Made by a program: the position numbers and the translations under genes. This document shows positions 14,867-34,270 of a stretch of DNA of 58,780 nucleotides, piece after piece. Position 1 is the first letter of the stretch. Each line of letters opens with the position of its first letter. Origin of the DNA: an uncultured Gammaproteobacteria bacterium (lineage in GTDB: Bacteria; Pseudomonadota; Gammaproteobacteria; JAGOUU01); the NCBI GenBank assembly GCA_964353115.1, contig CAYGUI010000003.1, positions 1 to 58,780 of the forward strand, written 5' to 3'. The notes under the pieces are model-generated. The model was not told the DNA's origin. It saw only the letters and a program-made list of their open reading frames with translations, and did not search any database.

Positions 14867-14927
14867 TTTCTTCTTCCCCTTCTTTTTTCTTTTCTTATTT
14901 ATATCTCCACACTCCACACTCGCCCGA

Positions 14928-14974: not shown

Positions 14975-15078
14975 ATTTTAAGCGCTAGCGCAAAATAGGG
15001 CGAGCATGTATGTGTGTATTTAATATATTGATTTTTCTTAAAAAATAGCGCTATTAAATTCCACAATTGCTGAATATA

Positions 15079-16748: not shown

Positions 16749-17656
16749 TATGACATCCGAGTTATAATTACCTTTTTATTGTTTGAGCTAATCAGCGCAG
16801 CTCTTTGAATAACGCTATCAATAACGTAGTAAGGATGTTTGTATCGATAATTAACCAATTCGGTTTTGCCATTATTTTCTAAATACAAAACTGGTAAATT
16901 ATTTTGCTCAATATCTTGCGGCATTTCTATTAATGTATGAACGCCGTCATCGAATATCCTATCAGGACAGATTGCATATCTTTCAGCGGCAATATCATAA
17001 TGAAAATTAACTTTATCTAAATTAATATTAGGACTTGCCGTTATAACTTCATTGCTATGATTATTATTTTCTAGATTTTGTAAGGATTTTTTAAGTGTAT
17101 CTTCAGGGTAATAGAAGCTCATAATTCGTGTAGTAGCTCCTTCACGACTAATTAAACCAACGTTATAAGTTCTTTTTGTCGTAGTTATGACCATATCTGT
17201 TGCCAGCTCAATTGACTTTGGCTTGATAGTTATTTGATATGAGCCAGTTTCAGCAGTTCCAACGCTAGATGTACTAACCAGCCAATTTATCGAATCTCCC
17301 ACATCAATATTATTTATTTTTTCACCTTGTTCGAGTTGCAGCACACATAAATGAAGGGGAGAGCATTGCACCATAAATTGTTCGTAAGGGTTGTAAGCCA
17401 TTATGTTTATTCCTTTGCCTGCAATATTTTTAGCAATGCCGTTTTTCGAATATTCTTTATAAGCCTTTACAACTTTAGGGTCTTCTCCTAAATTAAAAGT
17501 CGCATTAACTTTTGGTTCTGGCAAATGCACAGCTATTTTTTCTGTGACTATTCTCTTAGGAGCGATAAAGTTTTGATAGTTTATTTGTTGCGGTGGTCGT
17601 GTTGCTTGGCATGATGCTAAAGTAGCTATCATTGGTATCAGTAATAATTTTTTCAT
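16748..17656 (-). CDS. trbG: TrbG/VirB9 lipoprotein
   Basis: LASC lipobox, L..GE, GDS..W, TTKRTY, FDDG..T.I, VNYR. Confidence 0.9.
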   Translation of the reverse strand: MKKLLLIPMIATLASCQATRPPQQINYQNFIAPKRIVTEKIAVHLPEPKVNATFNLGEDPKVVKAYKEYSKNGIAKNIAGKGINIMAYNPYEQFMVQCSPLHLCVLQLEQGEKINNIDVGDSINWLVSTSSVGTAETGSYQITIKPKSIELATDMVITTTKRTYNVGLISREGATTRIMSFYYPEDTLKKSLQNLENNNHSNEVITASPNINLDKVNFHYDIAAERYAICPDRIFDDGVHTLIEMPQDIEQNNLPVLYLENNGKTELVNYRYKHPYYVIDSVIQRAALISSNNKKVIITRMS

Positions 17657-17664
17657 ATTTTCTC

Positions 17665-18300
17665 CTATCCTTCTTTAGTTAATACAAATTGCGTCACATA
17701 AAATCCTAACGGATTATTCTTCAAAATTAATTCATCCTTAGATGGTGTGCCATATTGATAAGTAATGGTCGCTAAATAGTTTTCTCCTCCTGTTTTTTCT
17801 CCAGTATTTTTACGTATTGTTTCTTGCCAACGAATATCAAAAGTATTGTCAGAGCGTTTCAAAATACTGCTGATATTTATTTCAGTAATGTTTTCCGTTG
17901 ATTTTTGTCGTTCATAAAAGCTATTTTCAGTACGCTTACGAGCAGCACCAGTGCTTAATGACATGGCGCGAATAATATTATCTTTATTAGCAAAGTTATC
18001 TAGCGTTTGATTGCGCGAATAAATTAAAAACTGTTTTACAAAATAGGGCGCAAGATTATCTTTAATATTTTTATCCTGAAATTCTTTGGGTGAAGTTATG
18101 ATGGCATCACCATGAATAATGAAAGGGTAGGGCTTAATAAAAGATTTTTGCGCAGTAATTATCAGTCCAACAATGGTTAAAGCTAATAATCCCGCTAGAA
18201 TAAAGTTAATCTTTACACTGGTTTTCAACTTATTCTCAACCGAGCCGTATAAATCATTCCACAATAATTTTGACTGCAAATATGGATTGTTATCTTTCAT
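17665..18300 (-). CDS. trbF: TrbF/VirB8
   Basis: NPY...W...YG, TM helix, W.E, NPLGFYV. Confidence 0.88.
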   Translation of the reverse strand: MKDNNPYLQSKLLWNDLYGSVENKLKTSVKINFILAGLLALTIVGLIITAQKSFIKPYPFIIHGDAIITSPKEFQDKNIKDNLAPYFVKQFLIYSRNQTLDNFANKDNIIRAMSLSTGAARKRTENSFYERQKSTENITEINISSILKRSDNTFDIRWQETIRKNTGEKTGGENYLATITYQYGTPSKDELILKNNPLGFYVTQFVLTKEG

Positions 18301-19238
18301 TATTTTCTCCTAAAGTTTGGTGGTGATATTTTTCGTAGTGCTTGAGCCAAGTTTTTAGCGCCTTTTAACGTATTTACAGCTGCTTTCATTGAACCCTTTG
18401 TCATATATTTAGCATTCATTACGGTGCTCATGGCGCCACTAGCGTAATCTCCTGATAACCCCGGAGCTACCAGATTAGACATAAAGCTAGGAATATTTTT
18501 AAAGATAGAAAAATAAACGATGACTGTCGCTAAAATAAGCAGCATGCTCATAGCTTCGCCATTTTCTGCAGCTTTTTTTGTTAAATCTGCCCATTCATAA
18601 CCTAAGTTTTGGCCGACAGATAAAATTAAATAAGTAATCATTAAGCGCACGCCTAGTGCTATTACGGCGCGCATGAAATTAACTGCTAGATCACGAGAGT
18701 GCTGATTAGCCCCGCAGGCAAAAAAGAAACTGCTTGTTGCAACTAAAACATATGATTTCACGATTAGAATCGTAAGCTCTGCTGCGATAAAAGCATAAAT
18801 TATCATTATAATAATGCAGATCATTACTGCTAGAGCTGAAACAAACGGATGCCTTAATAATCCCACGCTAGCTAATGAATAATAAATAGAGCCGACTATT
18901 TGATATCCCTGATCGATTATGCTGCTAGGATTAACGGCAATATTGGTATTAGCTTGATTACCTATTTCCATAAAGCTATTGAAAATGTCTGGCAGCCAGT
19001 TTCCTCCTAAATCTATTAAGGCGTAAAAGACTGCAAAAAAGATGCAAGATTTTATTATTTCTATAGCAGCTTTTTGTGCAGACTCACCAGTTAAGCTTAA
19101 CCATAAAGATGTTGTAGCTAATTGAATAATCGCCAGATATTTAAATATGCTATATGCCGTTTGTTGCAAAAAAAGACTATCTTTTATTAATGCGACTGAA
19201 AATTCATTTGTTACTGAATCTAAAATTCCTGCATCCAT
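18300..19238 (-). CDS. trbL: TrbL/VirB6
   Basis: Polytopic membrane protein, PSSIIDQG, position between trbJ and trbF. Confidence 0.85.
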   Translation of the reverse strand: MDAGILDSVTNEFSVALIKDSLFLQQTAYSIFKYLAIIQLATTSLWLSLTGESAQKAAIEIIKSCIFFAVFYALIDLGGNWLPDIFNSFMEIGNQANTNIAVNPSSIIDQGYQIVGSIYYSLASVGLLRHPFVSALAVMICIIIMIIYAFIAAELTILIVKSYVLVATSSFFFACGANQHSRDLAVNFMRAVIALGVRLMITYLILSVGQNLGYEWADLTKKAAENGEAMSMLLILATVIVYFSIFKNIPSFMSNLVAPGLSGDYASGAMSTVMNAKYMTKGSMKAAVNTLKGAKNLAQALRKISPPNFRRK

Positions 19239-19246
19239 GCTAACTC

Positions 19247-19966
19247 CTATTTAAATCTCATTCGATTAAAATTTATTTTGGGCTTATAACGCTCTTTAGG
19301 AAAGCTATCAATAACTTCTTGCATCGCTTTATCTTCTTGCGCTTCATTAGTCACCTGATGCGACATAAAAACTGCACTAGCATTAGACTGTGCAGCAATA
19401 ATCTTTTTAAGTTCTTGTAATTGATTTACATTTTCTGCTGCAATTTCACTAGAAACTTGCAGTGCTTGCATTTGGCCAGCGGAAGATTTACTTTGAGCTT
19501 TTAAAGCCTCGATAGTCCTTTGTTGTTTTTCAAAGTTTTCCGCGCTTTTTTGTAGCAATAAAATATTATTTTTTATGGTGTCACGTGCAGTTTGCAGTTG
19601 CGCTTTATTTTGCTGATTTTTTTGCTGTAAATTATTATTTGATTGCATTTTATCTATATCAGGAAAAATTTTATTAAACTTTTCATCCGCATTTTTCATG
19701 GTGTAAGATAAAGCTTTTCCGCGTCTTGACACATCATCCATTTGATTCATTAGCCCGCTTAGATCTCTCCATTCTAATTTTTTTATATTTTTTACATTGT
19801 CTATAGCAATTTCAACTGCACGAATTTCATTTTTTAATTGCTCGTACTGCCTCACATACATTAGACCATTTTGAATGCCGTTAACTATGTCAACAACAGG
19901 AAATCCTGATGCTAAAATATTGGCTGATGCAAAGACTAATGTAGCTGCTAGTAAAGTTTTTTTCAT
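19247..19966 (-). CDS. trbJ: TrbJ/VirB5
   Basis: Signal peptide, GFPVVD, Gln-rich coiled coil, GQMQALQ. Confidence 0.85.
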   Translation of the reverse strand: MKKTLLAATLVFASANILASGFPVVDIVNGIQNGLMYVRQYEQLKNEIRAVEIAIDNVKNIKKLEWRDLSGLMNQMDDVSRRGKALSYTMKNADEKFNKIFPDIDKMQSNNNLQQKNQQNKAQLQTARDTIKNNILLLQKSAENFEKQQRTIEALKAQSKSSAGQMQALQVSSEIAAENVNQLQELKKIIAAQSNASAVFMSHQVTNEAQEDKAMQEVIDSFPKERYKPKINFNRMRFK

Positions 19967-19995
19967 CGTAAATTTCTCCTTTTTATTTATTTTAA

Positions 19996-20091
19996 AATCC
20001 CCAGCGCCGTTGGCGCTGCCCCCTTTTTCAAAGTGGGCTAATTCTCTACTTTGAAAAAGGGGAGATGTCGCCTATGGCGACAGAGGGGATT
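19996..20091. repeat. Multibranch palindromic element between trbE and trbJ
   Basis: Outer AATCCCC/GGGGATT; inner stems AGCGCC/GGCGCT, CCCTTTTTCAAAGT/ACTTTGAAAAAGGG, TGTCGCC/GGCGACA. Confidence 0.8.
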
Positions 20092-22285
20092 ACCCACACG
20101 TATATTCCTTCGCCACATCCCCAAGCTCTAAATTAAATAACCTCGAGCCATTTGGAGACTGATAATAATAGTCTCGTTTAGGTTGTGCATTTTTTATAAC
20201 TGCTATTTCCTCCGTGGTTAAGCCAAAAGATTGATAATGTTCCGATAGTAATTTTTCTTGTGCTTTACTATTTGGTAAAAATATTCGTGTGAGACAAGCT
20301 GATTGAATAGTGCTTGCTGCTTTAGAAGTCGCTATATCAGAAACATCTTGGGAGGCAATAATAACTGCAACATTAAATTTTCTTAAGGTTTTAAACCAAT
20401 CAACCAGTTTTTCCTGAAATAATGGGTGTTTCAAGTAACACCAGGCTTCCTCTAGTACTAGTAAGGTTCTCTTTTTTTCGCGAAACAACAAGTCTAACTG
20501 ATTGAATATTGCTGTAATTACTGGTAACGCGATGTTTTTTTGATTATCATCCAGGAAATTTCCTAGCTCAAAGCCTAAAATATCTAAATTATTAAGATTA
20601 TTTTCAGTGCCATTTAATAAGTATTTAAAAATTCCTTGGTTTAAAGTATCAATAGCAATGCGCAGTTCTTGGTCTTGTAAACTCAAATGCTCTAGATTTT
20701 TATATTCTTGTGGCTCAGTAGCTAATCTTGTAACAGCTTCAAACAATATTTTTTGTCTGTCAGCATCGACAATAACTCCTTTAGACTCACAGCAAATACG
20801 CAACCATTCTGTTGCTAGGCTAATCTGATAATCATTGCCAGGATTGATTTGTGCTAATGGAGATAGTTGAAAGTCTTTTTGCATTAAATCAAAATAATTA
20901 CCATCTAAGGCTTTAATGATTTTTTTATTTGAATAATCTTTATCTAAAACAATAATTCTAGAATCATCATATTTTCTGTGTGCTGCAATTAAATTCGCCA
21001 ACAAGGTACTTTTGCCTGTTCCAGTTGGCCCAAGAATTGCAGTGTGACCTACATCTCCCACATGTAAACTTAAATAAAATGGTCGCGAGCCTTTAGTTAC
21101 AGTTTGTAGTAAATAATCTGGCTCGCCGCTGTACACTGAGCTTATGGGTAAAACATGGCTGGCAAATTTACTGTCAATAAGCATTTTGCGTAAATTATAT
21201 TCACCATGACCGGGCAGGCTACCTAAGTATGCCGCGCAAGCATTTACAGTCTCGATTCTGGCTTTAAAATTTAACTGTTGAATATGATTAATAATTTCTT
21301 GGGAAATGTTTTTTAATTTAATTAAATCTTCGCCCTGTAAAATCAATACCGAACTATAAAAACCAAAAGTTAAATTGCCGCTTTCATTTTCGCATTGTAA
21401 ATCTCTTAGATTATCTGCGGTATTTTGTGCATCTTCATTTAACTGCACGCTAAGCCCCATCGACTCACGGATAATACCGAAAATGCCAATAGCTTTTGAC
21501 GACCAGTTTTTAGTGTGTTTTTTTAAATAATTTTGTGCTGCATCTTTACCTAGCGGTATAAATCTTGAAGAAAAGCGATAATTTATCGATAAATAACTTA
21601 AATTTTCTAAAATTGCCGGATAACTTGCAGCTGGGATATCATCGATAGAAATAGTTAAGATATTTTTATTATTAATTTTTGGCTCAAACCCGGTAGTAAA
21701 ATCATAAGCTAAATAATTATCTAAAAATGCTCCTTGAAAAGGCTTTTGTAGCTTGTTATTGCTGCCTGTTATGCAGGTGTTTAAAAAAGATACTAAATCA
21801 GTATCTTCGAGAGCATTAATAGATAATAAGCTACGCGCTAAAAAACTAATAAATTCTTCAGTCTTATCATTGAAAAATTTACTGAAATCACTAGTGTAAT
21901 TATCTAGAGCTATTTTTGATAATCTATTCTGAGCTTCAATATTTTGTTTGAAGCTGATAGATAAAATATATTTTGTATCAACAATCTGTGAGCTTTCACA
22001 GCGTTCCTTGTTAATTTCCCGTGCTACTTTTTCTTTATATTGATGATTATTAATATTTTTTTGTGCTTGGCTAATTATATTAGTTTCCAGCATCCAACCA
22101 TCGCCTAAAAAACTAAATGCCTGCTGCCAGGTACTACTTAAAAAATCAATATCATCTTCTGACATAGAATCAATATCTGGCGCTTTATAACTAAAATGAC
22201 GCGATAAAGATCCGTCTTTGTGTAGTACCGTTTTTGAATCAATTAGTAATAAGTAATTTAATAACTCGCTAAATCCTTGTTTCAC
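20090..22285 (-). CDS. trbE: TrbE/VirB4 ATPase
   Basis: KDGS, GSLPGH, LHVGDVGHT, Walker A GPTGTGKS, EEAW, KTLRK. Confidence 0.93.
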   Translation of the reverse strand: MKQGFSELLNYLLLIDSKTVLHKDGSLSRHFSYKAPDIDSMSEDDIDFLSSTWQQAFSFLGDGWMLETNIISQAQKNINNHQYKEKVAREINKERCESSQIVDTKYILSISFKQNIEAQNRLSKIALDNYTSDFSKFFNDKTEEFISFLARSLLSINALEDTDLVSFLNTCITGSNNKLQKPFQGAFLDNYLAYDFTTGFEPKINNKNILTISIDDIPAASYPAILENLSYLSINYRFSSRFIPLGKDAAQNYLKKHTKNWSSKAIGIFGIIRESMGLSVQLNEDAQNTADNLRDLQCENESGNLTFGFYSSVLILQGEDLIKLKNISQEIINHIQQLNFKARIETVNACAAYLGSLPGHGEYNLRKMLIDSKFASHVLPISSVYSGEPDYLLQTVTKGSRPFYLSLHVGDVGHTAILGPTGTGKSTLLANLIAAHRKYDDSRIIVLDKDYSNKKIIKALDGNYFDLMQKDFQLSPLAQINPGNDYQISLATEWLRICCESKGVIVDADRQKILFEAVTRLATEPQEYKNLEHLSLQDQELRIAIDTLNQGIFKYLLNGTENNLNNLDILGFELGNFLDDNQKNIALPVITAIFNQLDLLFREKKRTLLVLEEAWCYLKHPLFQEKLVDWFKTLRKFNVAVIIASQDVSDIATSKAASTIQSACLTRIFLPNSKAQEKLLSEHYQSFGLTTEEIAVIKNAQPKRDYYYQSPNGSRLFNLELGDVAKEYTCG

Positions 22286-22563
22286 ACTAATCCTCCAATT
22301 GCAGGATAAAACTTGGTTAAATTAAACTTCATATTTTGTTTGATTAATGCTGCCAGATACACATCGTAATTGGTTAAAATCTTAGTTATAAAGTGCATGA
22401 CAATAAACAAACCCACACCTATAAACACAGCAGGAAATCTAAAATGACTGGCAGCTAATAAAGGAAAAGAGATTAAAAAATTCATGCTAATCCATTTTTT
22501 ATGCACGCCAAAAACTAAGATAGGGCGGCTCAGTGCTTTGTTAACCATGCTGACATTTTTCAT
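22282..22563 (-). CDS. trbD: TrbD/VirB3
   Basis: KALSRPILVFGV and two TMs; start ATG 22563 overlaps the trbC stop (ATGA). Confidence 0.8.
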   Translation of the reverse strand: MKNVSMVNKALSRPILVFGVHKKWISMNFLISFPLLAASHFRFPAVFIGVGLFIVMHFITKILTNYDVYLAALIKQNMKFNLTKFYPAIGGLV

Positions 22564-22850
22564 GAAATAACTGCTCCTGAAAATCCTAAAAAATTTGTAA
22601 CTATCTGAGTTGAGAAAACTGCTAAAGATATTCCACAACATGATTGTAATAATCCTTTTGCCCCACTTTGTAAATCTGTAAAAGCAATAACAAAGCCGCA
22701 AACAGCAATGGAAATAATCGCTAATGAATATGCAATATTTCCCGATAAGGCGCCAATTATTTTAGTAAATACTCCGTCTAGCTCATGAAGCCCATCTGAG
22801 GCAAAAGTGTTTTGTGTGAATATAGCCAATAAAATTAAATACTTTTTCAT
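22560..22850 (-). CDS. trbC: TrbC/VirB2 pilin
   Basis: Signal peptide, two hydrophobic helices, FSGAVI C-terminus. Confidence 0.82.
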   Translation of the reverse strand: MKKYLILLAIFTQNTFASDGLHELDGVFTKIIGALSGNIAYSLAIISIAVCGFVIAFTDLQSGAKGLLQSCCGISLAVFSTQIVTNFLGFSGAVIS

Positions 22851-23776
22851 AAAATCTCCGTTAAGTTAAATCGTTTAGTTTTAGAATCAAAGCTTTCAAC
22901 TTCTGCAATACTCGTCACTTTGCGTTTACCGTTTTCTACCGCTATTTGCACAATGATGTTAATTGTCGCTGCAATAAGTGCGTATGGTGGATTGGCAACA
23001 GCCTCCATGCATAAATCAATAATTCGCTGAATAGCAAGCTTAGGAGTATTTGCGTGAATTGTTGCTAGGCCGCCAGGGCATCCAGTGTTAAATGCTTTTA
23101 GCATATCTAACGCTGCGCTATCTCGCACCTCCCCGATCACAATTCTGTCTGGCGTGTTACGCATGCAGATCCATAGAAGTTTATTCATGTTCACTGTTGT
23201 ACTTTCTTGCATCTTTTTAGTATTTTTTAATGCACATTCGAGCTCAGGAATTTGTTCTAAAATTAAAATTCTGTGCCCTCCACTTTCAACTTCTGATATT
23301 TTTTTTAAAATTGCGTTTACAAAAGTTGTCTTGCCAGATGCTGGAGCTCCGCTAACTAAAATATTTTTACGAGACTTAATTGCATCGACTAAAAAATGAA
23401 ATTGTTCTAAATTTAAAACATCTTGCTGCACGTATTCTTTGAGTGATATTTCTTTTGTCGTTTTAAGGCGAATATTAAACGAAATTCCAGGAGTTATTGG
23501 TGAAGTAGTAACGTTGATCCTCTCTCCACCAAAAGGTAAAATTTCATCCAAATACGGCGTTTTATCTGAAATGAATTTTCCAGAATAATTTGCAACGGCG
23601 TGAACAAAATTTTCTGCTTCAGTTTGCGACATTGATCCTGCTTGCATGTTGCCATGCTGCGCATGTTTAAACCAAACATCCCCATTTGGGTTTAACATAA
23701 TTTCTTGAATGCCAGGAAGCGCAAATCCTTCTTGAACTATTAACCCCATTTTTTGCCATAAATATTCTTGTTGCAT
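22847..23776 (-). CDS. trbB: TrbB/VirB11 ATPase
   Basis: EIMLNP.G, Walker A GAPASGKTT, PDRIVIGEVR, NTG.PG..TIHAN. Confidence 0.92.
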   Translation of the reverse strand: MQQEYLWQKMGLIVQEGFALPGIQEIMLNPNGDVWFKHAQHGNMQAGSMSQTEAENFVHAVANYSGKFISDKTPYLDEILPFGGERINVTTSPITPGISFNIRLKTTKEISLKEYVQQDVLNLEQFHFLVDAIKSRKNILVSGAPASGKTTFVNAILKKISEVESGGHRILILEQIPELECALKNTKKMQESTTVNMNKLLWICMRNTPDRIVIGEVRDSAALDMLKAFNTGCPGGLATIHANTPKLAIQRIIDLCMEAVANPPYALIAATINIIVQIAVENGKRKVTSIAEVESFDSKTKRFNLTEIL

Positions 23777-24762
23777 TATTGTTTCCTGATTCCTACTGAT
23801 CTCATTGCTTGCTGCATCATCAAATTAACTTTTGCTTTTTCTTCAGCGCTTAATACTTTTCGTTCTTTAACTTCCGCAGGTTTGTGGTAATTAGCGCTTT
23901 GCCCTTTTGGTGCTTTAAGATTAACCTCGTCTTCCCAGCGCTTATCACGAAGCCAGGTGTCAGGATCTGGCCATTGAGGTGTGAACTCGTTATTTTGTTT
24001 TTTGATTTTTTTTGCTTGCGCTTGATTGTTTAGAGCGCTAAGAATTTTCTCTAGATTTTCAGAATTGATATTGGCATTAAAAAAACTGTCTTGAGCTTTT
24101 TGTTTTTTGATTGGCTTATCGGTTACTTCAGACCACTTGTTCCAGAATTTTTCAAAATAATCACACGCGCTCTCTTTGTGTGTAATCTTTGTAGTAGTCT
24201 TTGTATATAGTATATCGCTTTGGTTTGTACGTCCCGGCTGATCACTTTGTACTTCCGGGTTGCACATTTGTATATCTGGGGATGTACATTTGGTAGGTTC
24301 CGTTGGTACATTTGTACACTCGGTATTGTTAGATTTGTTGTAGTGATTATCAAGCCATGTATCGACCCTATCAGGGTGAAATAAAAAATATCTGGTACTG
24401 TCAAAGGCGTAACGAGGATTTGGATTTTTATGAATACTAACAAACCCCATTTTCAATATTATTTGCAGTGCTTTTTCAACTTTTCTACGGCCAAAACCCA
24501 TCAAGCTTTTTTGTAGATCATCCATCGTATGCCACTGAAATAATGACTCTATCTGCTGGCGATTGTCTCCATGTCGTTCAGCTATATCATTATATTTCTT
24601 GGCTTGCGAATATTGGTCCAATTTGATATTGTGCCAATATTCGAATAGATTTAAGAGAGCAGCGGCAACAAAGTCATTTTCACATGCGGCAACATAGCTT
24701 TCTCGTGTTATGACTAAGCGTTCTTTGGCTGGATGGTTTTTAACACATGAGGTTCTTGGCAT
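23776..24762 (-). CDS. Phage-type replication initiator (lambda O / replisome-organiser-like)
   Basis: N-terminal winged helix, repeat-rich linker, YTKTTTKIT, FEKFW...K..K..A...F, P.TWL...RWEDE; GGAGG RBS. Confidence 0.75.
   Translation of the reverse strand: MPRTSCVKNHPAKERLVITRESYVAACENDFVAAALLNLFEYWHNIKLDQYSQAKKYNDIAERHGDNRQQIESLFQWHTMDDLQKSLMGFGRRKVEKALQIILKMGFVSIHKNPNPRYAFDSTRYFLFHPDRVDTWLDNHYNKSNNTECTNVPTEPTKCTSPDIQMCNPEVQSDQPGRTNQSDILYTKTTTKITHKESACDYFEKFWNKWSEVTDKPIKKQKAQDSFFNANINSENLEKILSALNNQAQAKKIKKQNNEFTPQWPDPDTWLRDKRWEDEVNLKAPKGQSANYHKPAEVKERKVLSAEEKAKVNLMMQQAMRSVGIRKQ
24224..24324. repeat. Iteron-like array inside the initiator gene (candidate oriV)
   Basis: TTTG(T/G)TA-type units at 24224, 24246, 24267, 24289, 24311 (spacing 22/21/22/22). 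Confidence 0.65.
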
Positions 24763-24796
24763 ATGTGCCTCCTTGCTGTTTTGTCGATTTTTGTTT

Positions 24797-24834
24797 ACAA
24801 TTTAAATGTACAACAAAAAATGTATTTTTGTCAA
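24797..24834 (-). promoter_or_regulatory. Leftward promoter/operator for the rep-trb operon
   Basis: TTGACA-N18-TACATT with a TACA-N8-TGTA palindrome between the boxes; 28/29 inverted match to 25552-25580. Confidence 0.75.
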
Positions 24835-24854
24835 GATTGAACTAGAATTTTTTT

Positions 24855-25514
24855 ATGAAAACATTAGCAGAGCGTATAAAATTAGTAATGAAAGAGTCTG
24901 GAATGACTCAAGTCTCATTAGCAGATAAAATTGGCGTTAAACAACAGACTGTACAATCAATTTGCTCCGGTCGAATTAAGCGTTCGCGTTATACGCATGA
25001 TATCGCTGATAAATTGGGTGTAAATCATGATTGGCTATTAAGTGGGGATGGCGATAAATGGTTACAAAATGACGAAGGAGCTTTAATAAATCCCCCTGTT
25101 AAATATGTTCCTATTTTGCGATGGGAAGAGTCTGCAGAATGGGATGAGCTCAGAAACACTCCTAATGCCTTGAAAAACCATACTTTATTGCCAGTTATTG
25201 GCGATGTAAACCCTTCTTCTTTTGCTTTGCAAGTTACTGGTGACAGTATGTTATCAGATGATAGTTATAGTATTCCAGATGGCAGTATTATTATTGTTGA
25301 TCCGGTTAAGGAGCCAGAGCATAAGTCATTAGTTGTTGTTTCGATACCTGAAACAGATGATATTATTTTGCGTTTGCTTAGCGTTGAAGGAAGTAAACGG
25401 TATCTAAAAGCATCTAATACATCTTATCCTGATGCTGTTATAGAATTTCCTCGAAATGGAAAGATGTTAGGTGTTGTATCTATGAGTCTACGGTCGTTCA
25501 TTAACTTTTTTTAA
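24855..25514 (+). CDS. CI/LexA-like repressor (HTH_3 + S24)
   Basis: TLAERIK...TQVSLADKIGVKQQTV HTH; FALQVTGDSM; IVDP. Confidence 0.9.
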   Translation: MKTLAERIKLVMKESGMTQVSLADKIGVKQQTVQSICSGRIKRSRYTHDIADKLGVNHDWLLSGDGDKWLQNDEGALINPPVKYVPILRWEESAEWDELRNTPNALKNHTLLPVIGDVNPSSFALQVTGDSMLSDDSYSIPDGSIIIVDPVKEPEHKSLVVVSIPETDDIILRLLSVEGSKRYLKASNTSYPDAVIEFPRNGKMLGVVSMSLRSFINFF

Positions 25515-25543
25515 AGTGTTTTAACATTTCTGTTGTTTTTTTC

Positions 25544-25580
25544 TTGCATCTATACATTTTTTGTTGTACATTTAGATTGT
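25544..25580 (+). promoter_or_regulatory. Rightward promoter/operator for the xis-like gene
   Basis: TTGCAT-N17-TACATT with the same TACATTTTTTGTTGTA element. Confidence 0.75.
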
Positions 25581-25606
25581 GGATTAACAATTAATGGAGA
25601 CGACAG

Positions 25607-25804
25607 ATGGAAATTAAAAAAGTGTTAACGGAAATGGAAGCGGCAAATTACATTTGCATGAGCCGTTCTTTCTTGGCTCAAGATCGTATGAATGGCCAAT
25701 ATAAAAATCGTACTGCTGGTCCCAAATATATGAAAATTGGCCGTGCTATTCGTTATTTGCTTGATGATCTGGATTCTTGGTTAATGCTGCATCGTTGTGG
25801 CTAA
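25607..25804 (+). CDS. AlpA/excisionase-like HTH protein
   Basis: LTE.EAA.YI.MSRSFL, GP.Y.KIGRAIRY...DLD.W; GGAG RBS. Confidence 0.85.
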   Translation: MEIKKVLTEMEAANYICMSRSFLAQDRMNGQYKNRTAGPKYMKIGRAIRYLLDDLDSWLMLHRCG

Positions 25805-25884
25805 AACCATCATTACGCCCAGGCGCGTATTAGCGCCTGCGGTGGAATCAAAACAAAATCTAAATAAAAAACTTCAAATCTATC

Positions 25885-27027
25885 ATGCTATCCCGAGAAA
25901 TAAACAATAAAGTACAACACTTTACTCAATTTAAATACAAAGTTTCCAATTCGGTATATTACACTACTCACCTCTTATCTTTTCTAGGATTTATAATCAG
26001 TATTTCATACACTGGTATTTATGGCTGGCAGCAAGGAATTACTTTTTATGAAAAGATTTGTAATTGCTCGGCTTATATTATTGCTGATGCGATGCTCGCC
26101 TTTTTTTGCGCTTATTTAGGTGCTTTTAATGCACATCGATCATGTAAGTTACGAATTTGGCAAATGCGTTTAATCGGCTTTGTATTGTTCTGCTTATCGA
26201 TTGTTGCAATGGTTTCCGATTTGGCATCACAACATGATCTTTCGAATCAACAAATAGCTTCGTCCTATGTTAAAACTTTAAATGATCAATATACTGGCAG
26301 TTTGGATACAGAAAATAGGCTTAAAAAAGCTATAGAAAAATTAGACCCCCTATCCCAACCTGGTAATTATCGTCAGATATCACGACATTTATCTGATATA
26401 ACATTGCAAAAAAGAGAGATTTTACACCGCCTTCCAAAGCCTGAAGTTTCTTCTGTTAACAGCTTAAACTCCTGGTTAGCTCAAAGATTTGAGCTGGCTG
26501 AAAAGTCAGTAAATATTATTATTAAGGCTATTTGGGCCATTTTCTTTATTGCTGGATTTACAGTTATAGCATCAACTGGTGCTAGTCAGTACTGTGATGC
26601 CAGCCTTTTTCATTTTATTTCAAAGCAGCAAAGATTGGCTTTGAAAGCTATTAGAAAGCAAGCCAATTTTAATAGGAAGCTAGCACAAGCAACAGGAGAG
26701 CTAGATGGAAGCAAGAATGAGCAAGGTGGAAGCCAAAAGAAGCAACCAGGAAGCCAAAAGAAGCAGACACGAAGCATAGCTAAATTATCTTTAAAACCAA
26801 AGGGTTCTGGTAATTTTGGCGGAAGGCAAATTTCAACTTGGGTCGCCAACTATAAATACAAAAATATAGTCAAGTCGCTGAGTCAGAGCAAGGGAAACCC
26901 ATCACAGCGTAAGCTCCAGGATGTTTATGCGCTGACTAAAGAGCAGGCTAAATTGATGATAGGGTGGATGTTGGTTGATGGGGTTATTCGGCAGCAGGCT
27001 AATAGACAATATAGGTGGATAAATTAG
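25885..27027 (+). CDS. Membrane protein with coiled coil and C-terminal winged-helix-like domain
   Basis: About 4 TM segments, coiled coil, C-terminal PSQRKLQ...A..MI..M...GVI. Confidence 0.6.
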   Translation: MLSREINNKVQHFTQFKYKVSNSVYYTTHLLSFLGFIISISYTGIYGWQQGITFYEKICNCSAYIIADAMLAFFCAYLGAFNAHRSCKLRIWQMRLIGFVLFCLSIVAMVSDLASQHDLSNQQIASSYVKTLNDQYTGSLDTENRLKKAIEKLDPLSQPGNYRQISRHLSDITLQKREILHRLPKPEVSSVNSLNSWLAQRFELAEKSVNIIIKAIWAIFFIAGFTVIASTGASQYCDASLFHFISKQQRLALKAIRKQANFNRKLAQATGELDGSKNEQGGSQKKQPGSQKKQTRSIAKLSLKPKGSGNFGGRQISTWVANYKYKNIVKSLSQSKGNPSQRKLQDVYALTKEQAKLMIGWMLVDGVIRQQANRQYRWIN

Positions 27028-27094
27028 TTTTAAGTTTTGTTTTTTATAAAATTAAGGTATTATCATTTTAATGAAATGATTTCAAATATTTTTT

Positions 27095-29185
27095 ATGGAA
27101 AAGAAAATTACTAATATATTCATCTTAATTTTATCTTTTTGTATGTTTTCTATAAGTTACGGAAAATTAGTTGAATATAATCTCGATATAGATTACAAAA
27201 TTGTTAATTTTGCTAACAAAAATATTAAAACATTAGCTATTAATAACCAAATTCCAGCACCACTTATAAAAGCACGAGAAGGAGATATTCTTCGCGTTAC
27301 TTTTAATAATAAACTTGATGAAGAGACTTCTATTCATTGGCATGGAATTTTGCTCCCTAATGATCAGGATGGTGTACCATATTTAACTACAATGCCAATA
27401 AGAGCCCACACAAGCTTCACTTATGAGTTCCCAATTATTCAAAGCGGAACGTACTGGTATCATTCGCATACTAATTTACAAGAGCAACAGGGGCTCTATG
27501 GACCTTTAGTTTTTTTGCCAAAAACAAGTGAAAAATATAAAGAAGATCTAGTAATTATGTTCTCTGATTGGAGTAATGAAAATTCTAATACTATTTGGCG
27601 TCATTTAAAGATAGATGATGATTATTATTCACTAAAAAAAGATACCGTGCAGTCATGGCTTAAAGTATTGCAACATGGAAAGTCCGCAATCAAAAATCGT
27701 CTAAAAAGCGCCTGGACACGCATGGGGCCAATGGATGTTTCTGATGTTGGATATGATGCTTTTTTAGTAAATGGTTCTCAAAAGATATCGTATTCTAAAT
27801 ACAAAAAAGGCGATAAAGTTTTATTGCGCCTAATTAATGGCTCAGCGTCTACTTACTTTAATGTTGAGTTTGCAGGCGGTTCAATGGAGATTATTGCGGC
27901 TGACGGCCTAAATGTTAAGCCGATTAAAGTTGAAAAATTAAAAATTGCAATAGCGGAAACTTATGATGTTTTAGTAACTTTGCCTAAAAATGAATCTTAT
28001 GAACTTAGAGCAACAGCGGTAGATGGCAGCGGGTATTCTTCGACTATTCTTGGATCTGGCAAATTAAATAAAGCGCCGGATATGCCAAAACCAAATTTAT
28101 TTGTTGGCCATGATCATCATATGATGATGAATCATAAGGGTCACAATATGAGCCAAAGCATGGATCATTCTGCTCATAGTCATATGGAGCATATGAAAAT
28201 GGCTGTACCTAAAATTATCGAGCTTAATAATTATAAAGAACTAGCGGCGCCTCATAAAACAACTTTGCCAAAAGGGCGGCCAGAGCGAGTAGTAAATTTA
28301 GAACTCACAGGATTTATGGAAGGCTATGTGTGGTCTTTTAATAATAAAACTTTGTCAGAGGCAGATAAAATTTTAATTAAAAAAGGGGAGAATGTTAAAT
28401 TTGTTTTAGACAATAAGACTATGATGAATCATCCCATACATCTTCACGGCCATTTTTTCAGAGTTCTAAACGGGCAGGGGGATTACAGTCCGCTTAAACA
28501 TACTGTAGATGTGCCGGCTATGAGTAAGGTTGAGATAGAATTTGCAGCAGATGAGAAAAAAGACTGGTTTTTTCATTGCCATAATTTATATCACATGAAA
28601 TCTGGTATGGCACGAGTAGTTCGTTATGAAGGAACCGTTACTGATCCTAAATTAATTGAAGCTAAAAAAACTGATCCGTGGCCGCATGACGATACGTATT
28701 TTTTCCAGCCAAAAATTTCTGTGATGTCTAATAAACTACAAGGCATGGCGCGTGTATTTAATACCAAAAATACCGTATCGATTAAAGCTGAATATAATTA
28801 CAAAGACGAATATGATATTGATTTATTGTATTCTCGAAGATTTACTAGACATTTTTACGCTTATGCTGGTGGGAATTTCAAAAAAGAGCATGATGCACCT
28901 GATGACGGCAATAAAGGAGTTTTTGGTTTTACTTATGTGCTGCCATTATTGATTCATACGGATTTGCGAGTTGATACTAACGGGCATGTGAAATTTGCTG
29001 CAGGAAGCGATTTACAATTAACAGATCGGTTTGATTTTGAATGGGAAGTTAATACTGATAAAGAATATGAATTTATGTTGAATTTTGCCTTTAATAAAAA
29101 AATATATGCTAGCGTGAATTATTCTTCGGATTTAAATTATGATGAAAAGATAAAATTTGGTGCAGGTATTACTGTAATGTATTAA
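27095..29185 (+). CDS. Multicopper oxidase (CopA/PcoA type) with C-terminal beta-rich extension
   Basis: HWHG, WYHSH, HPIHLHGH, HCHNLYHM; His/Met-rich linker. Confidence 0.93.
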   Translation: MEKKITNIFILILSFCMFSISYGKLVEYNLDIDYKIVNFANKNIKTLAINNQIPAPLIKAREGDILRVTFNNKLDEETSIHWHGILLPNDQDGVPYLTTMPIRAHTSFTYEFPIIQSGTYWYHSHTNLQEQQGLYGPLVFLPKTSEKYKEDLVIMFSDWSNENSNTIWRHLKIDDDYYSLKKDTVQSWLKVLQHGKSAIKNRLKSAWTRMGPMDVSDVGYDAFLVNGSQKISYSKYKKGDKVLLRLINGSASTYFNVEFAGGSMEIIAADGLNVKPIKVEKLKIAIAETYDVLVTLPKNESYELRATAVDGSGYSSTILGSGKLNKAPDMPKPNLFVGHDHHMMMNHKGHNMSQSMDHSAHSHMEHMKMAVPKIIELNNYKELAAPHKTTLPKGRPERVVNLELTGFMEGYVWSFNNKTLSEADKILIKKGENVKFVLDNKTMMNHPIHLHGHFFRVLNGQGDYSPLKHTVDVPAMSKVEIEFAADEKKDWFFHCHNLYHMKSGMARVVRYEGTVTDPKLIEAKKTDPWPHDDTYFFQPKISVMSNKLQGMARVFNTKNTVSIKAEYNYKDEYDIDLLYSRRFTRHFYAYAGGNFKKEHDAPDDGNKGVFGFTYVLPLLIHTDLRVDTNGHVKFAAGSDLQLTDRFDFEWEVNTDKEYEFMLNFAFNKKIYASVNYSSDLNYDEKIKFGAGITVMY

Positions 29186-29192
29186 AGATTTT

Positions 29193-30401
29193 TTATTCAA
29201 CAGGGATTCCAAGGACAATGACTAAGATCATCATGAATAATAAAAAGCTGTAGAATAATACAGGCCAAAATATTTGCTTAATGCATTTGCAGCTTATAAT
29301 TGCTATTAATGTTAGGATTATTTGTGAAGCATAGTAAATAGCAAATGCTTTAGATGCTATAGGAATAATGCGGTAAATATTAACACTCCAGGTTAATACT
29401 AAAGTGATTAGAGTAATTAATAGATAACTGTTATTTACTGATATTTTTTTTCTAGTTGCTTCAGATATTAATCCGCCACTGCCAACAAGATCTGCAATAG
29501 CTGCGCTAAATTGACTCATAATTGCGGCTATAATTAAAAGTAGGGCTAGTGCAGGAGCCACAATGCGGCATAGGTTTATTACGGTAGTCTCACTTATTTG
29601 GTGAATATCATTAAAGACTACCATGGCAAGAGCTATAAAAAAGACGTAAATTACGCCTGAAATGTATTGTGCATATTTCATGGTTTTAATTCTCAAACTC
29701 GCACTATATTCATCTCCTATATAACGTGATGTTTCAAAGCCCTGGATAATAATTAGCATTCCCAAAATTTTCCTAAATCCAAGCCACCATGATTCATGTG
29801 GATATGCTTTTAAAATCCATTTTCCTTGCGTAAATAGTTCGGCATTGTATAAAAAATGGGTGACCATAATAGCAAAAATAATTGCTAATTTGGTATTAAC
29901 AGAATATATTTCAAAAAATTCTAAGATCGATAGACCACGAATTTTACCCATTATTCCAATAAATAATAATAGAGAAGAAGTCAAAATATTTTCATATAAA
30001 ATATTTTCAAATCCGATGCCACGAAGTGCAAAAGCTGATAATAGTTTCAAATAAAATGTTACAGAGATAATATATGCAAGACCCAGTGCAATACGAGATA
30101 TTTCTTCTAGGCGATAAATTCCATGCTCTGGCATTTTAATTAATAATGGCTCAAGATGTTTGATATTAAAACGCACGCTTGAGCCTAATGCATAGGCAAA
30201 AATTACGATCACAAGCATAATTAGTACTGCCCATTTTCCTGTAGCAAGTAATAGCAGGGGAGCGGATACTAAAAATCCACTACCAATTATTGATGCCAAA
30301 GGCGTTATAGTTGCATGCCAAGTTTTTGAGTTAATGATTTTCTTATGAAATAATGCCCAGAGGCCAAATAGGGTGGAGGCAATAGCGATAAAATTTAACA
30401 T
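29193..30401 (-). CDS. APC-like multi-pass membrane protein
   Basis: TPLASIIGSGFL, QGFETSRY; start ATG 30401 overlaps the upstream stop (TAATG). Confidence 0.7.
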   Translation of the reverse strand: MLNFIAIASTLFGLWALFHKKIINSKTWHATITPLASIIGSGFLVSAPLLLLATGKWAVLIMLVIVIFAYALGSSVRFNIKHLEPLLIKMPEHGIYRLEEISRIALGLAYIISVTFYLKLLSAFALRGIGFENILYENILTSSLLLFIGIMGKIRGLSILEFFEIYSVNTKLAIIFAIMVTHFLYNAELFTQGKWILKAYPHESWWLGFRKILGMLIIIQGFETSRYIGDEYSASLRIKTMKYAQYISGVIYVFFIALAMVVFNDIHQISETTVINLCRIVAPALALLLIIAAIMSQFSAAIADLVGSGGLISEATRKKISVNNSYLLITLITLVLTWSVNIYRIIPIASKAFAIYYASQIILTLIAIISCKCIKQIFWPVLFYSFLLFMMILVIVLGIPVE

Positions 30402-30760
30402 TATTCTACGATTAATCTCCCGCGATACATTCCCATTTGACAAGTAAATTCATATTCACCAGGCTTATCGATTTTTACATCAATTTGATGAATTTTATCG
30501 ACAGGGAGTTCCGCACAGATATCTAAATCTTTAAATACAACTACAGAAGAGCAGGGTGATTTATCTTGCCGTAAAAATTTTAGGTGCAAAGTCTGCCCAG
30601 CTTTGACGTTTATAACAGCAGGGGAGTAAATACCGTCGTGAACTTTTATTTCTATAGTATCGCCAGATATTGTGGTAGCTTGTGGTTTTTTAATTAAAAA
30701 CCACCAAATTATTAATCCTATTAAGACTAATCCAGATAAATTTACAATTATAGTAATCAT
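30401..30760 (-). CDS. Cupredoxin-domain protein
   Basis: N-terminal TM, YSP, C...V, FTCQMGMYRG. Confidence 0.85.
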   Translation of the reverse strand: MITIIVNLSGLVLIGLIIWWFLIKKPQATTISGDTIEIKVHDGIYSPAVINVKAGQTLHLKFLRQDKSPCSSVVVFKDLDICAELPVDKIHQIDVKIDKPGEYEFTCQMGMYRGRLIVE

Positions 30761-30761
30761 T

Positions 30762-32984
30762 TTATTTCTCCGAAACTTTAAACCAGCGTAATCTATTAGC
30801 GTTGCTTACAACGGTAACAGATGATAATGCCATAGCAGCGCCAGCAATCATTGGGTTTAATAATAAGCCAATAAACGGATATAAAATTCCGGCTGCAATT
30901 GGAATTCCAATGCCGTTGTAGAAAAATGCACCTACAAGATTTTGTTTTATATTTGTCAAAGTAGCTCCAGAAATAGCTATAGCATTGGTAACGCCGTGTA
31001 TAGAACTTCGCATAAGCGTTATATCAGCACTTTCAATGGCAACATCAGTACCTGAACCAATTGCAAAGCCAATATCGGCTTGCGCGAGAGCAGGAGCGTC
31101 GTTAATGCCGTCTCCTACCATGCCAACTATGTGTCCTTGAGTCTGTAATTCTTTTACTTTATCTGCTTTATGCTCGGGTAAAACATCAGCAAAGACTTTA
31201 TCAATGCCGACCTGCTTAGCCACAACTTTAGCAGTCGTCTCATTATCGCCAGTTAACATCACTACTTCTATGCCTAATTTTTTGAGGCGCCCTATAGCAT
31301 CTTTTGAATCATCTTTAATCGGATCAGCAACAGCAATAATTCCAGCTGCATTATTATCAATCGCCATGTACATTGGTGTATGACCTAGGTTGGCAAGTTC
31401 AAGGGCTTTGTTTTGTAGTGAATCAATATTAATATTATTTTTAGTCATTAATTTATCATTGCCGAATAAAATATTTTTGTTATCCAAACTTGCTGAGACC
31501 CCATGTCCCGCAATAGCAGCAAAATTATTTATTTTCAAAATTTCTAGATTTTTACTTTTTGCAGATTCAACAATTGCTTCGCCAAGAGGATGTTCAGAGC
31601 CGCTTTCAATGCTCGCAGCTAATTGCAGTAAATTATCTTGAGATAAATTATTAGCTGCATAAACTTCAGTGACTTCTGGATGTCCCAAAGTTATAGTTCC
31701 AGTTTTATCTAGAATAACGGCAGTTAATTTTGTAGCCTGTTGAAGCGCTTCGCCGTTTCGAATTAAAGTACCATTTTCTGCGGCTTTGCCCATGCCGACC
31801 ATGACAGAAATAGGCGCAGCAAGACCTAATGCGCAAGGGCAGGCGATAATTAATACGGTCATTGATGTTACTAAAATAAAGCCAACTTTAGGATCGGGTC
31901 CAAAGTTAAACCAAATAAGCCCAGTTAAAACAGAAATAACCATAACTGCAGGCACAAAAAATGATGATACTGTGTCGGCCAGGCGCGCAATTGGCATTTT
32001 TGTATTTTGTGCTTGCTGCACTAAATTTACAATTTGTGCAAGAGCAGTATCTTTACCAATGCGAGTTGCTTTAAAAAGAAAACTTCCAGTTTTATTGATT
32101 GTACTGCCAATAACTTCATCGCCAACTTGTTTTTTAACAGGGATGGGTTCACCAGTTAGCATTGACTCATCAACTGTTGAGTGTCCCTCAGTAATTTCAC
32201 CGTCTACTGCTATTTTCTCGCCAGGACGGACGCGTACAATATCATTTAATTGTACATCTTCTATGGGTATATCAATTTCTTGGCCATCTCGTAGCACTCG
32301 TGCAGTTTTGGCTTGCAAACCGATTAGGCGTTTTATAGCTTGCGATGTTTTACCGCGTGCACGAATTTCAAGTGCTGCCCCAAGATCAACTAGGGCAATA
32401 ATAATTAAAGCTGCTTCAAAATATACATGCTGGGCTAGAGGTGGAACGATATTAGGAAAAACTGTAATAAACTGTGAGTATATCCATGCAGTGCCAGTTC
32501 CTAAGGCTATTAGCGTATCCATTGTCGCATAATTATTTAAAAACGCCTTAAAGGCATTGCGATATAAATATCCACCAGAATATCCCATAATTATTACAGT
32601 GATAATTCCTATAATAAACCAAATAATTTGTCCCGCTGTTTCAGTGATGGGTGGGGTGAAATTTGTAATTCCTAGAATATAAAAAATAACCCCGAAAATG
32701 CCAGCTACAATAAATTTACGCATTAGCATTCTAAAACGCACAAATTCTTCTTGCTCTTCTTCTATAATATCGAATTTTTCAAATGGCTCAGCATCATAGC
32801 CAACGTTTTTAATAGCAGAAATTAGTGTGTCGGATGAGACATTACCGATTATAACAGCGGTTTTTTCTGCAAAGTTAACTTGTGCATTTTCTACTCCATC
32901 AACTTGATTTAATGCAGTTTCTATAGTTTTCACGCAGCTTGCGCAGCTGATATCTTTTAGAGATAGTTTTATTTGTTCGTCCAT
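30762..32984 (-). CDS. copA: Cu(I)-translocating P1B-ATPase
   Basis: CASC HMA domain, TGE, CPC, DKTGT, SEHP, GDGIND, YN, MALSS. Confidence 0.95.
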
Positions 32985-33038
32985 GATTTAGATTGTTATT
33001 TGGTATGGTGTGATTATAGCATTAGACTTAATGAATAT

Positions 33039-34172
33039 TTAGTCTACGCATTTACACCATGTACAATCACAATGCGATTTTTTTGCATAATTGGCACTAC
33101 GCTTTAATTTCAGCCGCATTCTGGCCCATGGATAAATTATTTTCCTTCCCAGCGATGGTTTGTATAATTTATACAGCCAATTGTGAGGGTTACTTTGGGA
33201 GTTAAGACTTTTTAAAACACGTTTGTATCCACGATTACCTAGAAAATTATATAAATAGCGGTTCACAAGTGCTGTTTTCATTGGGTCCTGCAAAGATTTT
33301 TTCCATAGAGAATTATATTGTTGATAAGGATACTTTTGAATGAAATTTTGAGCAGCTAAATGTCCTGAAACCATTGCAAAGCGCAATCCAAATCCCCATA
33401 GGGGATCTTAAAATCCTGCGCATTCACCAGTATATAGAATTTTTTCTTTAACGGCTGATTTCGGCAAAATGAAATTAACAGCACCTCCAAAACGGTGCTT
33501 ATTTTCCATATTAAAATTTAATTTATTCTGAAAAAATTCTAATGTGCGTTCAAGATAATGATTTTCATTATGGAAATCTTCAAACAAACATGTTGATATA
33601 GTTGCATAGTTATTATGAATTAATAGATACGCATAACCTTTTATTGCTAACTCATCATCTAGCACCGTATAAGCACCATCATCAAGCTCTGTATTAAAAG
33701 TATAGCCAACAGCAATAGCATCAGGTGCTCGCGGACCGATAGATACTATGCCGCCTTGTGGTAATTTTGTAAGTGTTTCTTCAAAAGAAATAGTTACACC
33801 AGCATCAATAGCCTGCTTTCTTAGCCCATTATCCAAGCTACCCGGGTTACTTCCTCGGCGAACTAAATAATAAAAAGGTTTTTCACTATGAAACGCATAT
33901 TCGTTATTATAATGATCATAACCTTTAACGTCATAACTTGGAGTAGCATCAAAATTTATTTGAATATTCATTGCATGAAGCTGCTCTAAAATATCTACAG
34001 TTGAACTCCAATTTTCTAAGCCCTGAAAATCATTGCTAAAACGTGCACCAACCGTTTTTCTTTTTTCATAAACAGTAACATTTATCCCTGCTCTGGCCGC
34101 AGTAATTGCCGCTACTAAACCTGATGGCCCAGCCCCAATAATTTTTAAATCCTTAGCTTTTGTTGCATCCAT
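33039..34172 (-). pseudogene. NAD(P)/FAD-dependent oxidoreductase (geranylgeranyl-reductase-like) with in-frame stop
   Basis: IIGAGPSG Rossmann motif; two ORFs in one frame: GECAGF-TAA(33408-33410)-DPLWGFGLRFAM. Confidence 0.85.
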
Positions 34173-34270
34173 AAAGGAACTCTCCTAGTTAATACTAGTA
34201 ATTTAGTCTATATTAGCCCTCTCTGTCAGGATAGTTGTCGTGTTGATTATCAAAAAGGAAGTATCAAAGT

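Follow-up and report, generated by a model that had tools for sequence, protein, structure and literature searches.

A 434-type repressor gene between two candidate operators in a Trb-type integrative conjugative element of an uncultured gammaproteobacterium

This study concerns a gene for a phage-type repressor and its two flanks in a contig of an uncultured Gammaproteobacteria bacterium (assembly GCA_964353115.1, contig CAYGUI010000003.1, positions 1 to 58,780; this whole stretch of 58,780 nt is called the window). The gene lies inside an element of ~34.5 kb that is bounded by exact 48-nt direct repeats (7129-7176 and 41580-41627) and carries a tyrosine integrase at its far end. The features of an integrative conjugative element (ICE), namely an integrase, attachment (att) repeats at a tRNA gene, a Trb type IV secretion system (T4SS) and a coupling protein, are all present. 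An initial annotation, made from the sequence alone, had described a repressor gene bracketed by an inverted repeat, with a promoter pointing outward on either side. The features at the locus, with the strand where there is one, are as follows.

24797-24825: left arm of the 29-nt inverted repeat (repeat search, 28/29, with shuffle control)
24805-24810, minus strand: TACATT, candidate -10 box for leftward transcription, sharing 2 nt with the operator (promoter scan and geometry of relatives)
24809-24824: left operator candidate T-ACA-N8-TGT-A with a 434-type 14-bp core at 24810-24823 (motif type found on both repressor flanks in relatives)
24829-24834, minus strand: TTGACA, candidate -35 box for leftward (rep-trb) transcription (promoter scan; geometry shared with the related loci L004, L038 and L043)
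24855-25514, plus strand: repressor gene, 219 aa, 434-like HTH_3 domain and Peptidase_S24-like domain (Pfam, phrog and structure-profile matches)
25544-25549, plus strand: TTGCAT, candidate -35 box for rightward transcription, weak with 3/6 (read by eye, unlisted by the promoter scan)
25552-25580: right arm of the inverted repeat (repeat search)
25553-25568: right operator candidate T-ACA-N8-TGT-A, core 25554-25567 (motif search)
25567-25572, plus strand: TACATT, candidate -10 box for rightward transcription (read by eye)

Domain, phrog and structure-profile matches all assign the bracketed gene product to the cI/434 type, which bears out its first description as a repressor. Pfam finds HTH_3 (PF01381, E 3.7e-8) and Peptidase_S24 (PF00717, E 1.4e-14), above cut-off, and phrog_4 'transcriptional repressor' covers residues 1-218 of the protein (E 2.5e-31). 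The nearest solved structure to residues 4-68 is the phage 434 repressor (E 1.8e-10), and the C-terminal part aligns with the C-terminal domain of lambda cI (E 0.0025). The protein is a near-orphan, since in a set of 5.8 billion proteins only 5 of 332 candidates reached E <= 0.001, and its best non-self match (P0002), which is 54% identical and shares its recognition helix, lies on a contig of 1190 bp. A first scan of genome contigs with the repressor alone gave 41 pattern matches, none of which was confirmed, and a search at the level of the host's order, which holds five genomes, added nothing.

The C-terminal domain keeps the Ser nucleophile (Ser131 in the motif GDSM, compared to GNSM in lambda cI). 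The column of the catalytic Lys, the residue altered in PDB entries named K192A, is occupied by Arg173, and the Ala-Gly (or Cys-Gly) site of the linker is missing, RWEESAE standing where Lys-keeping relatives have xxQAGx. Arg in this column is found also in the protein P0002, in L004 (a locus of the G002 lineage), in L027 and in others, while prophage-like relatives have Lys. The exchange of Lys for Arg together with the loss of Ala-Gly recurs in the nearest relatives of the repressor, namely P0002, the G002 lineage and L027. Since both features are changed, RecA-stimulated self-cleavage of the repressor in the SOS response is unlikely. In a marine lineage with 27% GC (L004/L037, L038/L039, L040 and L043) the S24-like domain lacks all three self-cleavage features, with NDVM or NNVM for GDSM, Arg for Lys and no Ala-Gly. 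That the domain is retained in these loci despite the loss suggests that it may now serve for oligomerisation only.

The arms of the inverted repeat are complementary at 28 of 29 positions (97%) and stand 726 nt apart. They form the longest inverted repeat of the whole window if one mismatch at most is allowed and the arms are 100-2000 nt apart, while in 60 dinucleotide-preserving shuffles the length did not exceed 19 nt (mean 16.9, sd 0.93). The repeat, which was recovered by the repeat search just as initially annotated, is genuine and well above chance. Both arms contain TACATTTTTTGTTGTA with 0 mismatches (24809-24824 on the minus strand and 25553-25568 on the plus strand), and in both this sequence runs into TACATT, as had been noticed, its final TA being the opening two bases of that hexamer. 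A 21-nt core of the arm (<=3 mismatches) occurs just twice in the 1.5-Mb assembly of 119 contigs, once in each arm.

A near-perfect inverted repeat of 29 nt around a single gene would also fit the terminal repeats of a small mobile cassette that brought the repressor gene into the element. We find this origin scarcely credible, because the bracket contains no transposase and no target-site duplication can be read beside the arms, and because the 21-nt core is found nowhere else in the genome. The relatives described below share the gene order with sites that are direct and not inverted, and the searches so far found no other genome with this cassette and its arms at an unrelated position.

With regard to the outward promoters, the left candidate on the minus strand consists of TTGACA (24834-24829), a spacer of 18 nt and TACATT (24810-24805) and was found by the promoter scan with a score of 10/12. 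The right candidate, with TTGCAT (25544-25549), a 17-nt spacer and TACATT (25567-25572), was read by eye and matches the consensus at 7/12 positions, 3/6 of them in the -35 box. The first description had placed the -35 boxes just inside the arms; this is correct for the positions of TTGACA and TTGCAT, but TTGCAT is weak and its pair is not listed by the promoter scan. Both candidate -35 boxes lie inside the bracket that the arms form. Rfam (E <= 1) gave no match in the region 23700-27100.

The operators of phage 434 are, in the portion of PMC1636474 available, 14 bp long and two-fold symmetric with conserved outer 4+4 bases, the reference being ACAATNNNNATTGT. The arm core ACATTTTTTGTTGT (and its complement) has the same ACA-N8-TGT geometry and 7/8 outer bases of the 434 operator. 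Sites of the form ACAW-N6-WTGT occur six times in the 58.8-kb window, of which the intergenic share is 8.3%, and only the two arm sites are intergenic. We dismissed a further operator in each arm, because the spacing of the second ACA...TGT pair is N7 and because this pair ends, on its outer side in the right arm, with TGTG.

The comparison with syntenic relatives supports the reading of the arm cores as operators. Locus L004 of G002, a genome of the same family, carries a rep-like gene, a gene for a repressor 33% identical to that of the window, and a gene like those for recombination directionality factors (RDF), in the same order as in the window; in the parts compared, L004 is identical to the marine contig L037. 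Within its 3.6 kb, L004 has TACA-N8-TGTA (TACAAGTTTATTTGTA) at just two places, the intergenic regions on either side of the repressor gene, and both sites have 8/8 outer bases of the 434 operator. L038/L039 and L043 repeat this pattern with one TACAAG...TTTGTA site per repressor flank. The repressors of these relatives (G002/L004=L037, L038/L039 and L043) are 30-33% identical to that of the window, and in each case the two sites repeat 16-19 nt in direct and not in inverted orientation. Since a dyad operator is indifferent to its orientation, while an inversion site is not, the direct repeats favour operators and disfavour a site of inversion.

Such an inversion had been put forward initially as the alternative: the arms would be recombination sites of an invertible cassette, and a flip of the repressor gene would swap the -35 boxes and alter expression. 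The geometry is as required, in that a regulator gene stands between inverted repeats and the two -35 boxes, being inside, would change places. However, the direct repeats of the syntenic relatives are unable to support inversion, and the core of the arms is accounted for as a 434-type operator. Among the 41 open reading frames (ORFs) scanned between 7342 and 43664 there is no invertase or resolvase family, the recombinases being just the ICE integrase and an IS3-type transposase. In addition, a contig of 306 nt (24565-24870) spans the left arm and is oriented as in the reference, with no strand-switch joint. This contig stems from four DNA runs of one biofilm-metagenome study, which may include the source sample of the window and which yielded 10 short Logan contigs, none of them over the right arm; these data are too thin to detect a rare inverted form. 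No RNA run was listed as containing the locus. Inspection of reads and of related genomes had both been suggested as a check: the reads give the reference orientation at the left arm, in one contig, and leave the right arm uncovered, while the related genomes L004/L037, L038/L039 and L043 have direct repeats in place of an inverted arrangement. We regard an invertible cassette as very improbable.

The arrangement of promoter boxes and operator on the rep side is common to the window, L004, L038 and L043: the -35 box is followed after 3-4 nt by the operator, and the -10 box shares the last TA of the operator (TTGACA-aaaa-operator-TAcatt in the window, TTGTTC-tgt-operator-TAtcat in L004, and alike in L038 and L043). 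On the RDF side the relatives have TTGACA, a spacer of 17-18 nt and TATATT, TATTAT or TATCAT, followed by the operator over the probable start. Here the window departs from them, since its RDF side copies the geometry of the rep side.

A wider, alignment-based scan gave 80 metagenomic loci and 38 loci of a viral collection (118 in total). From these, 37 near-full-length loci were chosen by eye before counting and were analysed together with the window and L004 (39 loci), while 81 were dropped as partial matches or near-duplicates, e.g. a large group from gut metagenomes with 25% identity. A site was defined as ACAA-N6-TTGT with one deviation allowed at position 4. The flanks of the 39 loci contain 64 such sites in 17,040 nt, compared to 29 in 168,050 nt elsewhere. 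At least one site lies within 200 nt upstream in 27/39 loci, and sites upstream and also within 200 nt downstream are present in 10/39 loci, corresponding to 6/26 clusters (>=80% identity). When these 26 clusters were sorted by the recognition helix, an upstream site was found in 16/19 clusters with the motif G-x-[KT]-[PQ]-Q-x-[IV] and in 0/7 without it. The script had given 16/18 and 0/8; since it read the first 70 residues only and the helix of L130 comes after them, this locus was regrouped by eye.

This association bears on a further alternative, in which the arms would be duplicated promoter pieces or sites of another protein (such as a host factor, the RDF-like protein or the other S24-like regulator, encoded at 9172-9837) and would not be bound by the bracketed repressor. 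The arms hold a -10-like hexamer and a probable start region, neither of which needs a repressor, and the element does carry a second regulator with helix-turn-helix (HTH) and S24-like domains. Nevertheless we consider it unlikely that another protein is the ligand: the type of operator tracks the recognition helix of the repressor family across loci, the geometry of the arms fits that of the closest solved relative of the repressor, and the second regulator differs in its helix and has a palindrome of its own at 9913-9928.

Among the prophage-like loci of the scan, L047/L123, L048 and L051 have two sites upstream and two to three just downstream, while in L042 and L117 the upstream sites number three, at intervals of 22-24 nt, and another cluster follows 1-2 kb downstream. 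L048 and L051 carry a divergent YdaS/Cro-like gene, and L124/125/127 a gene for an HTH protein of 68 aa. Judged from these sites and genes, the layout of the prophage-like relatives is the classical OR/OL layout of lambda and 434, with a Cro-like partner, and the analogy to lambda PL and PR that had been drawn for the window appears apt. The clusters in environmental prophage-like loci comprise two to three sites each with a spacing of 19-46 nt within the cluster (955-1001 and 2762-2809 in L042, 2427-2473 and 4663-4696 in L117, 2411-2457 and 3225-3269 in L048), and the 434-like immunity family is widespread in metagenomes.

Several other loci were set aside. Six loci of the Legionella branch, found via the rep-like domain (L022, L024, L025, L026, L031 and L032), are uninformative on the operator: unlike the window they have a different divergent regulator of ~220-226 aa, and they lack both a following RDF-like gene and a nearby ACA-N8-TGT site. 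L027, from a metagenome-assembled genome of Berkiella, combines a repressor 29% identical to that of the window with an RDF-like gene, but its helix differs and the site is absent. L040 has a helix of the G002 type, but no site and another context.

The genes on both sides of the locus and the borders of the ICE are given next.

7129-7176, plus strand: attL, 48-nt repeat, 3' end of tRNA-Glu (repeat and tRNA search)
12838-23776, minus strand: trbB-C-(D)-E-J-L-F/VirB8-G-I, S26 peptidase, MobC-like protein and type IV coupling protein (T4CP) (family matches)
23776-24762, minus strand: replication-initiator-like protein, 328 aa, first gene to the left (phrog_270, E 1.7e-14)
25607-25804, plus strand: HTH_17/AlpA-like protein, 65 aa, probable recombination directionality factor (excisionase) (profile match to RdfS)
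25885-27027, plus strand: membrane ORF, 380 aa, no family, second gene to the right (ORF list, family scans)
40250-41413, minus strand: tyrosine integrase, Arm-DNA-bind_3 and Phage_integrase (domain scan)
41580-41627, plus strand: attR, exact 48-nt copy of attL (repeat search)

The trb/T4CP genes form a string on one strand with gaps of -142 to 140 nt and belong to the families TrbB/C/E/J/L, VirB8-like, CagX/TrbG and TrbI. The N-terminal domain of the replication-initiator-like protein has its best relatives in Legionella and in Legionellales contigs. The 65-aa protein alone matches HTH_17 with E 0.021, which is under the Pfam cut-off, and its homologue in L004 with E 5e-5; a profile of five homologues matches RdfS of ICEMlSymR7A (PDB 8dgl) with E 3.6e-6. 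The labels rep-trb and xis used initially for the two sides are reasonable in the light of phrog_270, the Trb families and the RdfS match. It had also been stated that no cro gene is visible, and indeed the nearest ORFs are those of the replication-initiator-like protein on the left and of the excisionase-like protein on the right. The family scans recognised no relaxase family in the element, and blastn of 23700-26100 against a plasmid collection gave no match.

Several observations were made on the remainder of the element. Between the RDF-like gene and the 380-aa ORF, just 3' of the former, lies a GC-rich stem-loop (CAGGCGC-GTATTA-GCGCCTG, 25819-25841) with no T-run, which may act in weak termination or in processing. 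Within the 380-aa ORF a tandem 21-nt repeat (26698-26739) encodes a repeated GGSQKKQ-like stretch. The region 27095-39334 carries cargo genes for copper resistance (multicopper oxidase, cupredoxin-like protein, copper P-type ATPase and CDF transporter) and an IS3-type transposase pair at 34271-35769. The second HTH_3 and S24-like regulator (9172-9837, minus strand) has GTAL without the Ser, Arg for Lys and no Ala-Gly. In the intergenic region upstream of it lies the dyad TCACCA-N4-TGGTGA (9913-9928), which is unique in the window, and beside it, at 10001-12849, four ORFs on the plus strand (93, 446, 94 and 258 aa) without a Pfam or NCBIfam match.

We consider it probable that the locus is the immunity and control module of the 34.5-kb ICE, a stripped-down form of the OL-cI-OR arrangement of phages 434 and lambda, with the repressor on both operators silencing the outward promoters. 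Homology and comparison support this reading, which is in essence that of the initial annotation (one repressor, a shared operator and twin outward promoters). A dimer of the 219-aa repressor would bind, via its 434-like helix-turn-helix, one 14-bp ACA-N8-TGT operator per arm. Each operator would lie in the spacer of an outward promoter of the sigma-70 type and overlap its -10 box, and since it does so, the bound repressor would keep RNA polymerase out. The leftward promoter is predicted to serve the replication-initiator-like gene and the conjugation string of trb/T4CP genes of roughly 12 kb, the rightward promoter the RdfS-like excisionase gene. In this way a single protein would silence excision and transfer together.

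The start codon of the repressor gene follows 30 nt after the end of the left operator. Therefore any promoter of this gene must overlap the left operator, and autoregulation of the repressor is likely. Candidates for such a promoter are TTTACA-16-AAAAAT (promoter scan) and TAGAAT at 24841-24846 with a leaderless start (read by eye). No purine-rich, Shine-Dalgarno-like sequence can be read ahead of the repressor ATG, and a leaderless mRNA is possible; in this the gene may resemble cI of lambda, whose mRNA is leaderless.

The proposed module also offers an origin for the inverted repeat. A block of operator, -10 box and start region would be present in two copies, each facing with its outward promoter, while the -35 boxes stand outside the copies. 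Two copies that face outward would form a 29-nt inverted repeat ending at the edge of the operator and at the predicted start, near 24798 on the minus strand and 25580 on the plus strand, and the block may have been doubled by duplication or gene conversion. Prophage-like relatives have the OR/OL layout with a Cro-like gene, so the window would represent a minimal, Cro-less version of it in a conjugative element. For the release of repression, an anti-repressor, or dilution when the element enters a new cell, would be likelier than RecA-stimulated self-cleavage.

A number of points weigh against this reading. The right promoter candidate is absent from the list of the promoter scan, its score being under the threshold, and promoter-like matches are about twofold more frequent in the DNA (14 observed, 7.4 +/- 2.7 in shuffles); since such matches are common here, the hexamers alone are weak evidence. 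The 13 nt of each arm past the operator have as their sole explanation a duplicated -10 and start region, the second ACA...TGT pair of the left arm having N7 and not N8. The candidate operator departs from ACAA/TTGT at one of its eight outer bases, and the recognition helix of the repressor, KQQTVQS, differs from that of 434 as well as from KPQAIQY of most relatives. With regard to the family counts, the helix-bearing clusters L040 and L149, together with L130, have no site. The association of helix and operator is moreover biased, because the peptide patterns of the scan included the recognition helix and the motif was defined post hoc. Finally, the ICE-type synteny is present in just three or four independent lineages.

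While the proposed module would work by occupation of each operator, it is also possible, though in our view doubtful, that a DNA loop is essential. Dimers on the two sites, 744 bp apart from centre to centre, would then join via their C-terminal domains and enclose the repressor gene, resulting in cooperative, switch-like repression without Cro. The C-terminal domain of lambda cI mediates contacts between dimers and the looping between OL and OR, and that of the window repressor is homologous to it. With a single operator per side no adjacent site is at hand for local cooperativity, and the spacing in relatives is similar (747 bp in L004, L037, L038, L039 and L043). However, a similar spacing merely follows from the length of the gene, oligomerisation is backed by homology alone, the changes in the catalytic site are uninformative on tetramer contacts, and simple occlusion at each promoter suffices without a loop. 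Bolder still, and rather unlikely, is a model in which a tetramer of this Cro-less, protease-dead 434-type repressor on two single operators loops its own gene and constitutes an SOS-insensitive epigenetic switch of ICE excision and conjugation, released by an anti-repressor or only by zygotic induction in recipients.

Compared to the immunity regions of phages 434 and lambda, the window likewise has a repressor gene between two outward promoter candidates that share its candidate operators. Its HTH domain is closest to that of the 434 repressor, the 14-bp operator candidates have the ACA...TGT outer triplets, and the upstream site is shared with the promoter region of the repressor's own gene. 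Unlike these phages, the window has one operator per side instead of three and no cro at the locus, the repressor lacks Ala-Gly and carries Arg at the position of the catalytic Lys, and the genes under its putative control are those for conjugation, replication and excision of an ICE and not early genes of a phage.

Among conjugative elements, SetR of SXT/R391 is a related case. In the text of PMC4542580 as available, SetR has four operators in one intergenic region and acts through the activators SetCD, a Cro-like partner is encoded in the PL transcript, SetR is inactivated by RecA-stimulated cleavage at Ala-Gly, and the setR mRNA of SXT is leaderless. The window would share with this system, as so described, a cI-like repressor with HTH_3 and Peptidase_S24 domains that silences an ICE and a divergent early promoter beside the repressor gene. 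In contrast to it, the operator candidates of the window lie on both sides of the repressor gene, direct control appears to extend to the T4SS string and the excisionase gene, no activator or Cro was seen, and the features for cleavage are missing. Genomic islands of Legionella with Trb/Tra genes carry a 'putative phage repressor (PrpA)' according to the available part of PMC3218107, and as in the window an S24/HTH 'phage repressor' gene thus lies inside P-type (trb) conjugative islands of Legionellales; a description of PrpA at the level of operators was not found in that part of the paper. For Rco of pLS20, the accessible text of PMC4207663 and PMC7641744 describes two separated operators, DNA looping, overlapping divergent promoters and repression of the conjugation operon. 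A conjugation operon under a regulator with two separated operators is likewise predicted for the window, whereas the repressor family is unrelated, the host of pLS20 is Gram-positive, and release occurs there, as far as these excerpts go, by a quorum-sensing anti-repressor; looping belongs to pLS20 and is an analogy only for the window. In the literature covered, which largely leaves subscription journals outside, no 434-type, operator-bracketed repressor without a cleavage site was found for a Trb-type ICE.

For a conjugative element in an uncultured bacterium that is Legionellales-like and AT-rich, the analysis points to a concrete, testable pair of repressor and operator. The findings suggest that Trb-type ICEs of the host's group borrowed the immunity layout of phages 434 and lambda in a minimal form, with one operator per side and no Cro, and in such a layout the transfer machinery and the excisionase would share direct control. 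This is a well-known phage design in a trimmed variant, and it does not overturn current understanding. The pairing of 434-type operator and recognition helix is common in environmental prophage-like loci and is a possible source of orthogonal repressor-operator parts. Since the residues for self-cleavage are lost in the ICE lineage, the sequences imply that its transfer would be uncoupled from the SOS response, unlike that of SXT. If this is true, the element would be induced by some other signal.

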